Shown piece after piece: positions 5,353-5,430 of a stretch of DNA of 23,959 bases; the first letter of the stretch is position 1, and every line of letters starts with the position of its first letter. Both the position numbers and the translations under genes were made by a program. Location: the IMG/VR virus record IMGVR_UViG_2648501400_000002, positions 1 to 23,959 of that record. One strand, given 5' to 3'. This stretch comes from a virus. Lineage: Duplodnaviria; Heunggongvirae; Uroviricota; Caudoviricetes. The notes below the pieces were generated by a model. The model did not search any database. It saw only the letters and a program-made list of their open reading frames with translations, and had not been told where the DNA came from.

Positions 5353-5430
5353 TATTTCTATTTCTATTTCTATTTCTATTTCTATTTCTATTTCTATTTC
5401 TATTTCTATTTCTATTTCTATTTCTATTTG
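5353..5430. repeat. Hexanucleotide microsatellite (TATTTC) x12 perfect plus one imperfect copy
   Basis: Read directly: 12 perfect tandem TATTTC units at 5353-5424, then TATTTG. Intergenic, between the divergent 590-aa gene and the HNH gene. Confidence 0.95.

Follow-up and report, generated by a model that had tools for sequence, protein, structure and literature searches.

Location and Structure of the Repeat

The DNA stretch studied here (the window) comprises 23,959 nucleotides, positions 1 to 23,959 of the viral record IMGVR_UViG_2648501400_000002, and represents a lambdoid prophage by gene content. The subject of the analysis is a perfect hexanucleotide microsatellite, (TATTTC)n, located between two divergent genes encoding a 590-aa protein and an HNH endonuclease. 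The features of the locus in window coordinates are as follows.

2800..6200: nin-region accessory island with low GC (guanine-cytosine) content, lying between ninG and the NinE-like gene; holds the tract and both genes that flank it (590-aa and HNH)
3264..5036, minus strand: 590-aa gene of unknown function (phrog_9230; RefSeq WP_001505174, “hypothetical protein”)
5339..5352, no strand: 14-bp left flank GTGGTCTGTTTTAA, common to the O157:H7 strains 86-24 and Sakai; homology with the O157 locus begins here
5353..5429, no strand: (TATTTC)12.8 perfect hexanucleotide microsatellite, from Tandem Repeats Finder and sequence reading; orthologue of the variable-number tandem repeat (VNTR) locus VNTR-9, also named O157-9, TR1 and Vhec4
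5437..5442, no strand: T6 mononucleotide run, 8 nt right of the tract, a second slippage-prone site
5502..5521, minus strand: exact site of the TR1 primer ACTGCATGATAAGCCTCAGG (PMC2246123 Table 2)
5613..5639, minus strand: exact site of the VNTR-9 forward primer GCGCTGGTTTAGCCATCGCCTTCTTCC (PMC3321953 Table A1; PMC8461963), overlapping the ribosome binding site and start of the HNH gene
5624..6190, plus strand: HNH_3 + AP2 endonuclease gene, 188 aa, assigned by family match (RefSeq WP_001108084, “HNH endonuclease”)

Tandem Repeats Finder reported 12.8 copies of TATTTC at 5353–5429 with a period of 6, 100% matches, no indels and a score of 154, and found no second tract comparable to this repeat in the whole window. 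The initial annotation had placed a perfect (TATTTC)12 at 5353–5430; the repeat is perfect and hexanucleotide as described, but it ends at 5429, since base 5430 is G. A three-unit probe with no more than one mismatch matched the window 11 times, versus no matches in 100 dinucleotide-preserving shuffles.

The composition scan gave a GC-content of 0.29–0.40 across approximately 2800–6200, versus about 0.50 on either side. Hence, within the nin region, the tract and its two flanking genes make up a single low-GC island of foreign DNA, in agreement with the foreign low-GC source proposed initially. The flanking genes are divergent, as annotated, with the 590-aa gene on the minus strand and the HNH gene on the plus strand, and the intergenic region holding the tract is 587 bp long. 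For the distances of about 320 and 200 bp given previously, the measured values are 317 bp as far as the minus-strand TTG (5036) that starts the 590-aa open reading frame (ORF), and 195 bp as far as the ATG (5624) of the HNH gene. The homologues of the latter gene in RefSeq are annotated from ATG 5624 and not from GTG 5543.

Identity with the Typing Locus VNTR-9

The tract is the Escherichia coli O157 locus VNTR-9 of MLVA (the analysis of variable-number tandem repeats at multiple loci), found here in an undisrupted context. VNTR-9, Vhec4, TR1 and O157-9 are one locus (PMC3321953, PMC3768571), and this locus is an established fingerprinting marker of E. coli O157. The initial annotation did not recognize the standard typing locus, which is identified by the published primers and repeat unit. 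The unit of TR1 is given as AAATAG (PMC2246123 Table 2), the reverse complement of CTATTT, which is a rotation of TATTTC. To the right of the tract lie exact sites for the primer of TR1 and for the VNTR-9 forward primer of the PulseNet type (PMC3321953 Table A1; PMC8461963). The left-hand partner primers of both assays have no site in the window, even with three mismatches allowed; therefore, a standard VNTR-9 PCR (polymerase chain reaction) would score the window strain as a null allele.

The genomic position is also that of VNTR-9, with the tract lying upstream of the HNH endonuclease gene, ninG and Q in a lambdoid prophage. In E. coli O157:H7 86-24, the TR1 and VNTR-9 primer pairs both bracket a repeat orthologous to the window tract. 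The right flank of this strain is identical to that of the window as read, and the gene order HNH, NinG, phosphatase, Q is common to both. The Sakai locus, with 9.8 units, belongs to Sp17, a defective prophage at ssrA, where its neighbors are ECs_3504 (“endonuclease”) on one side and “IS30 partial” on the other. VNTR-9 of Sp17 shares with the window the repeat unit, the 14-bp left edge, the right flank with the primer sites, the downstream genes and the copy-number range. The difference lies on the left side, which is a remnant of the insertion sequence IS30 with the second primers in Sp17 and an undisrupted flank with the 590-aa gene in the window.

The other hexanucleotide VNTRs of O157 (O157-3, -17, -19, -25, -37 and -10) likewise have 6-bp units and change by whole units through slipped-strand mispairing, at about 10⁻⁴ to 10⁻³ mutations per generation, and serve purely as typing markers. 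All loci but VNTR-25 and VNTR-36 are, however, tabulated as inside an ORF in PMC3321953 Table 1, whereas the window tract is intergenic, AT-rich and prophage-borne.

Length Variation

The tract was extracted from a total of 41 loci. Besides the window, these comprise 7 loci from genomes and 33 IMG/VR contigs, the latter located via the right flank. Tract length ranges from 4.83 to 23.83 units with 14 alleles and a median of 9.83. Every tract length, in 41 loci out of 41, equals 5 modulo 6, and therefore the changes come in whole units. A single flank haplotype (TGTTT end, GTTGTGG) spans alleles of 4.8 to 23.8 units. Rare variant units (TGTTTC, CATTTC, TACTTC and TAATTC) occur mostly toward the right end of the tract. 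The neighboring T-run at 5437–5442 is also polymorphic, with T6 in 29 loci, T5 in 9 and T7 in 3.

A 381-nt query across the tract found both flanks in 245 complete genomes, with spans of 339–447 nt in steps of 6 ± 1, and the O157 genomes align from the tract rightward with varying unit numbers. Published data on O157 list 15 alleles with 6–23 repeats and a diversity index that, at 0.90, is higher than at the other seven of the eight loci; a null allele was scored here in 31.7% of the German O157 isolates (PMC3321953). Serial passage gave a rate of 1.3 × 10⁻⁴ mutations per generation in complete repeat units, and slipped-strand mispairing is the standard inference for the cause of the repeat change (PMC3777172). 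The comparison of copy number across isolates suggested in the initial annotation thus shows a variable and not an invariant locus, and the slipped-strand length change expected there agrees with the allele range, the whole-unit steps and the published rate.

Escherichia albertii carries an orthologous island with (TATTTC)6, with flanks 89–92% identical and the 590-aa gene 95% identical to those of the window. Hence, the tract is not a recent one. At least five TATTTC units occur in 62 of 2.9 million viral contigs; 34 of the 62 represent this locus, and the remainder are unrelated low-GC contigs, including many giant-virus metagenome-assembled genomes. The occurrence of the repeat in unrelated low-GC contigs fits a spontaneous microsatellite origin in AT-rich DNA.

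Probable IS30-Associated Rearrangement in O157

The IS30 end found in O157 adjoins the sequence homologous to the window at position 5338/5339, 14 bp left of the tract, and in 86-24 both left-hand primers lie inside the truncated IS30 transposase gene. In strain L005, the window left flank up to 5337 is fused to the opposite IS30 end. The positions linked to IS30 are 5338/5339 of the window, 5184–5986 of L001 and 3139–3982 of L005. The two IS30 ends now lie apart, one by the tract and the HNH gene, the other neighboring the 590-aa gene as well as a piece of tail gene J. These different contexts imply an IS30-associated rearrangement between prophages. Since L005 joins the left flank to the other IS30 end, the O157 arrangement looks like the result of an IS30 insertion at 5338/5339 followed by rearrangement, judging from the junctions.

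Proposed Explanation and Its Alternatives

In the explanation favored here, the tract is a non-coding microsatellite of hexanucleotide units. It occupies the AT-rich spacer of a low-GC island, acquired horizontally, within the nin region of a lambdoid prophage. The order in the window (590-aa gene, tract, HNH gene, ninG) would represent the original arrangement, from which a later rearrangement in the O157:H7 lineage would have taken away the 590-aa side. Whole 6-bp units would be gained and lost by slipped-strand mispairing in replication at about 10⁻⁴ per generation, and this slippage would keep the tract pure and highly polymorphic. Tract length would have no selected function and would be a by-product of low-complexity, AT-rich foreign DNA. 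The combination of VNTR-9 identity, slipped-strand whole-unit change and a neutral non-coding spacer appears highly probable.

The best surviving alternative is that the tract acts as a length-variable cis-regulatory element, the number of units altering the spacing or helical phase to the promoter of the 590-aa or HNH gene and giving heritable, reversible expression. The location of the tract within the divergent intergenic region, its hypermutability and its retention in E. albertii despite diverged flanks are consistent with such a role. However, no near-consensus promoter adjoins the tract. The consensus scan of 4900–5700 gave no sigma-70-like promoters versus 3.3 expected in shuffles, and only one weak terminator-like hairpin (5480–5496). 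A relaxed scan gave weak minus-strand promoter candidates for the 590-aa gene at 5165–5231, 120–190 bp from the tract, and these weak candidates are length-independent. One weak site touches the tract; its −35 lies inside the periodic repeat, so that its spacing does not depend on copy number. By direct reading, a −10 hexamer with A in position 2 as well as T in position 6 does not arise from any rotation of TATTTC/GAAATA.

The genetic evidence also argues against this role. In O157, where IS30 cut away the 590-aa gene and the prophage is defective, the purity and size range of the tract are unchanged, null alleles are common among German isolates, and no repeat precedes either the 71% or the 48% homologue of the 590-aa gene. 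The length-variable regulatory element suggested in the initial annotation is thus unsupported, and we consider it unlikely.

Promoter-proximal contingency repeats are known in other bacteria, such as the TAAA tract upstream of nadA in Neisseria meningitidis and the TA tract between −35 and −10 of hifA/hifB in Haemophilus. Like the window tract, they are hypermutable simple repeats, intergenic and upstream of accessory genes. However, they lie at set positions with respect to promoters that have been mapped, and their influence on expression is demonstrated, whereas the window tract has no adjacent promoter and survives unchanged after the loss of one neighbor gene. A phase-variable switch would involve either a repeat that forms the −35/−10 spacer of a promoter or one within an ORF whose unit length is indivisible by 3. 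The window repeat has a 6-bp unit and is non-coding, and its length of 77 nt precludes a promoter spacer.

A more general proposal, that the tract is a cis element tunable by copy number, either as a loading site for the termination factor Rho or as an upstream spacer modulating the promoter of the candidate-effector 590-aa gene, is somewhat less likely still. If it were true, prophage expression would have a rheostat in what is routinely used as a typing marker; tuning of transcription would be a rare case of simple-sequence-repeat control in E. coli, and nothing here points that way. No publication on the function of such a tract was found in the literature, where the locus tags ECs3504, ECs3505, Z3935 and Z3936 lead only to an MLVA paper.

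Taken separately, the Rho variant is improbable to a greater degree. Here, the G-free (UAUUUC)n on rightward, pR-derived transcripts would serve as a Rho utilization (rut) site, forming a terminator tuned by unit number ahead of HNH, ninG and Q. The nin region of phage lambda contains terminators, which counts for this possibility, and the 83-nt G-free run is the longest on the plus strand of the window. By the criterion applied, a rut site comprises 60–80 nt of RNA that is G-poor and unstructured, with YC dimers 9–13 nt apart. The run has a UC dimer every 6 nt; taking every second one yields (YC N10)x6 once at least 12 units are present, in line with the [(YC)N9-13]6 spacing proposed for the primary binding site of Rho (PMC6144790). 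This match carries little weight, because such motifs occur about 3.5 times per kb in E. coli (PMC6144790). In addition, the tract is only 15.6% C, versus C-rich rut sites (PMC6144790), N-modified polymerase would ignore such a site in lytic growth, and Sp17 has no early region to supply the transcript. With regard to known RNA families, an Rfam search of 4700–5900 gave no match at E ≤ 1. Apart from these proposals, an iteron or other protein-binding array was set aside, as no known type matches a 6-bp unit that lacks a neighboring gene for replication or partition.

Two overlapping spurious ORFs cross the tract.

5285–5473, plus strand: ORF encoding (IS)n
5295–5564, plus strand: ORF encoding (FL)n

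A coding tract, giving either an (Ile-Ser)n peptide or a membrane peptide whose (Phe-Leu)n helix is variable, is hardly credible. The 6-bp unit preserves the reading frame, the annotation pipeline PGAP calls a “hypothetical protein” across long alleles and the locus is tabulated as “inside ORF” (PMC3321953 Table 1). On the other hand, the T5/T6/T7 run 8 nt downstream leads to three different C-termini, one copy (L002) is flagged “frameshifted” in RefSeq, the start codons are lost to IS30 in all O157 genomes examined and short alleles carry no annotation at all. Pfam and PHROGs searches of both ORFs gave no match. The T-run frameshifts, the loss of starts and the absence of family matches largely refute the coding reading; both ORFs are artefacts, as the initial annotation held, and so are the automatic “hypothetical protein” calls over long alleles.

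The neutral-spacer explanation is left as the preferred one, and its parts differ in strength. The tract is VNTR-9, it is variable, it changes by whole units and it is non-coding. Neutrality, in turn, we infer from the absence of coding, promoter and RNA signals and from the indifference of the tract to the loss of its neighbor. Two points weigh against it. The persistence of the tract in E. albertii despite 8–11% flank divergence could mean selection as well as high slippage; and the 83-nt G-free run on the rightward transcript may leave room for an effect at the RNA level.

Prophage Setting and Other Features of the Window

The genes around the island, assigned by the gene content of the window, are as follows.

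565–1266: replication protein P
2171–2581: NinB
between NinB and the 590-aa gene: NinE-like ORF
6165–6767: NinG
6764–7429: NinI-type Ser/Thr phosphatase gene, between NinG and Q
7426–8049: antiterminator Q
after Q: lysis, terminase, portal and capsid genes

Island-free lambda-like phages align to the window only from about 5607 rightward, and the Shiga toxin (Stx) phages SH2026Stx1 and AU6Stx1 contain the whole island. The HNH-AP2 endonuclease begins with MAKPARRRC, which we take to be the N-terminus of lambda NinG; the N-terminus of the window NinG differs from that presumed lambda sequence. With the island-free phages matching from about 5607, this start places the right junction of the island, as it seems, inside the 5′ end of ninG, with the ninG translation start captured by the HNH gene. 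Tandem Repeats Finder also detected a repeat of 20 bp × 2 at 5642–5682.

No genome in the E. coli genome collection is identical to the window, the best match having 98% identity over 82% of it. The best-matching genomes come from mixed human, animal and environmental isolates, with no O157:H7 record among the 12 matches listed. These best matches end at 20450, the site of a mosaic junction. The region to the right of the junction contains the following genes.

20537–21238, minus strand: serine recombinase gene (Resolvase + HTH_7), by family matches
22088–22702, minus strand: tail-fibre assembly gene
22702–23841, minus strand: tail-fibre C-terminal gene (Phage_fiber_2 x3 + Collar), by family matches

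This region also contains 229-nt inverted repeats (21173–21401 and 22994–23222, 93% complementary) and a 168-bp tandem repeat at 23389–23935 corresponding to fibre repeats. From its gene and repeat content, the segment 20537–23959 looks like an invertible tail-fibre (host-range) segment of the Gin/Pin/Cin type.

An in-frame stop interrupts the NinI-type phosphatase gene at codon 93 (7040–7042), whereas its homologues elsewhere are intact (221 aa). Downstream of Q, a 252-aa ORF (8287–9045) is located at the position of the toxin genes in Stx phages, within a second low-GC stretch (about 8000–9200, GC 0.34–0.40). It belongs to phrog_1521, of unknown function, and has no Pfam, PADLOC or NCBIfam match.

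The 590-aa Protein and Its Relatives

The 590-aa protein gave no Pfam, NCBIfam or PADLOC match, and phrog_9230, to which it belongs, is of unknown function. The homologue search returned “hypothetical” names only, in E. albertii (92–93% and 71% identity), Salmonella (about 48%, 680 aa) and Providencia, and a close-relative scan of species-representative genomes found none. The 71% homologue from E. albertii adjoins NleF-like (NleF_casp_inhib) and AvrPphF-like genes and has no repeat upstream, as is also the case for the chromosomal 48% homologue from Salmonella. Hence, the tract is not a feature of this gene family. Given the neighbors of the 71% homologue, the 590-aa protein may be an unrecognized type III secretion effector. 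Its N-terminus is Ser/Thr-rich. The AlphaFold model, built from a 19-sequence alignment, is almost entirely helical, with a predicted local distance difference test (pLDDT) score of 39.7, a confidence too low for the model to be used.

Significance

The locus has been in use for outbreak typing of E. coli O157 since 2003, and it carries little weight as a discovery. Its undisrupted form occurs widely, both in E. albertii and among E. coli outside O157. The only added value of the window is the native, pre-IS30 context of VNTR-9, which explains the PCR failures and null alleles at this locus outside the O157 arrangement, because the second primer sits in IS30.
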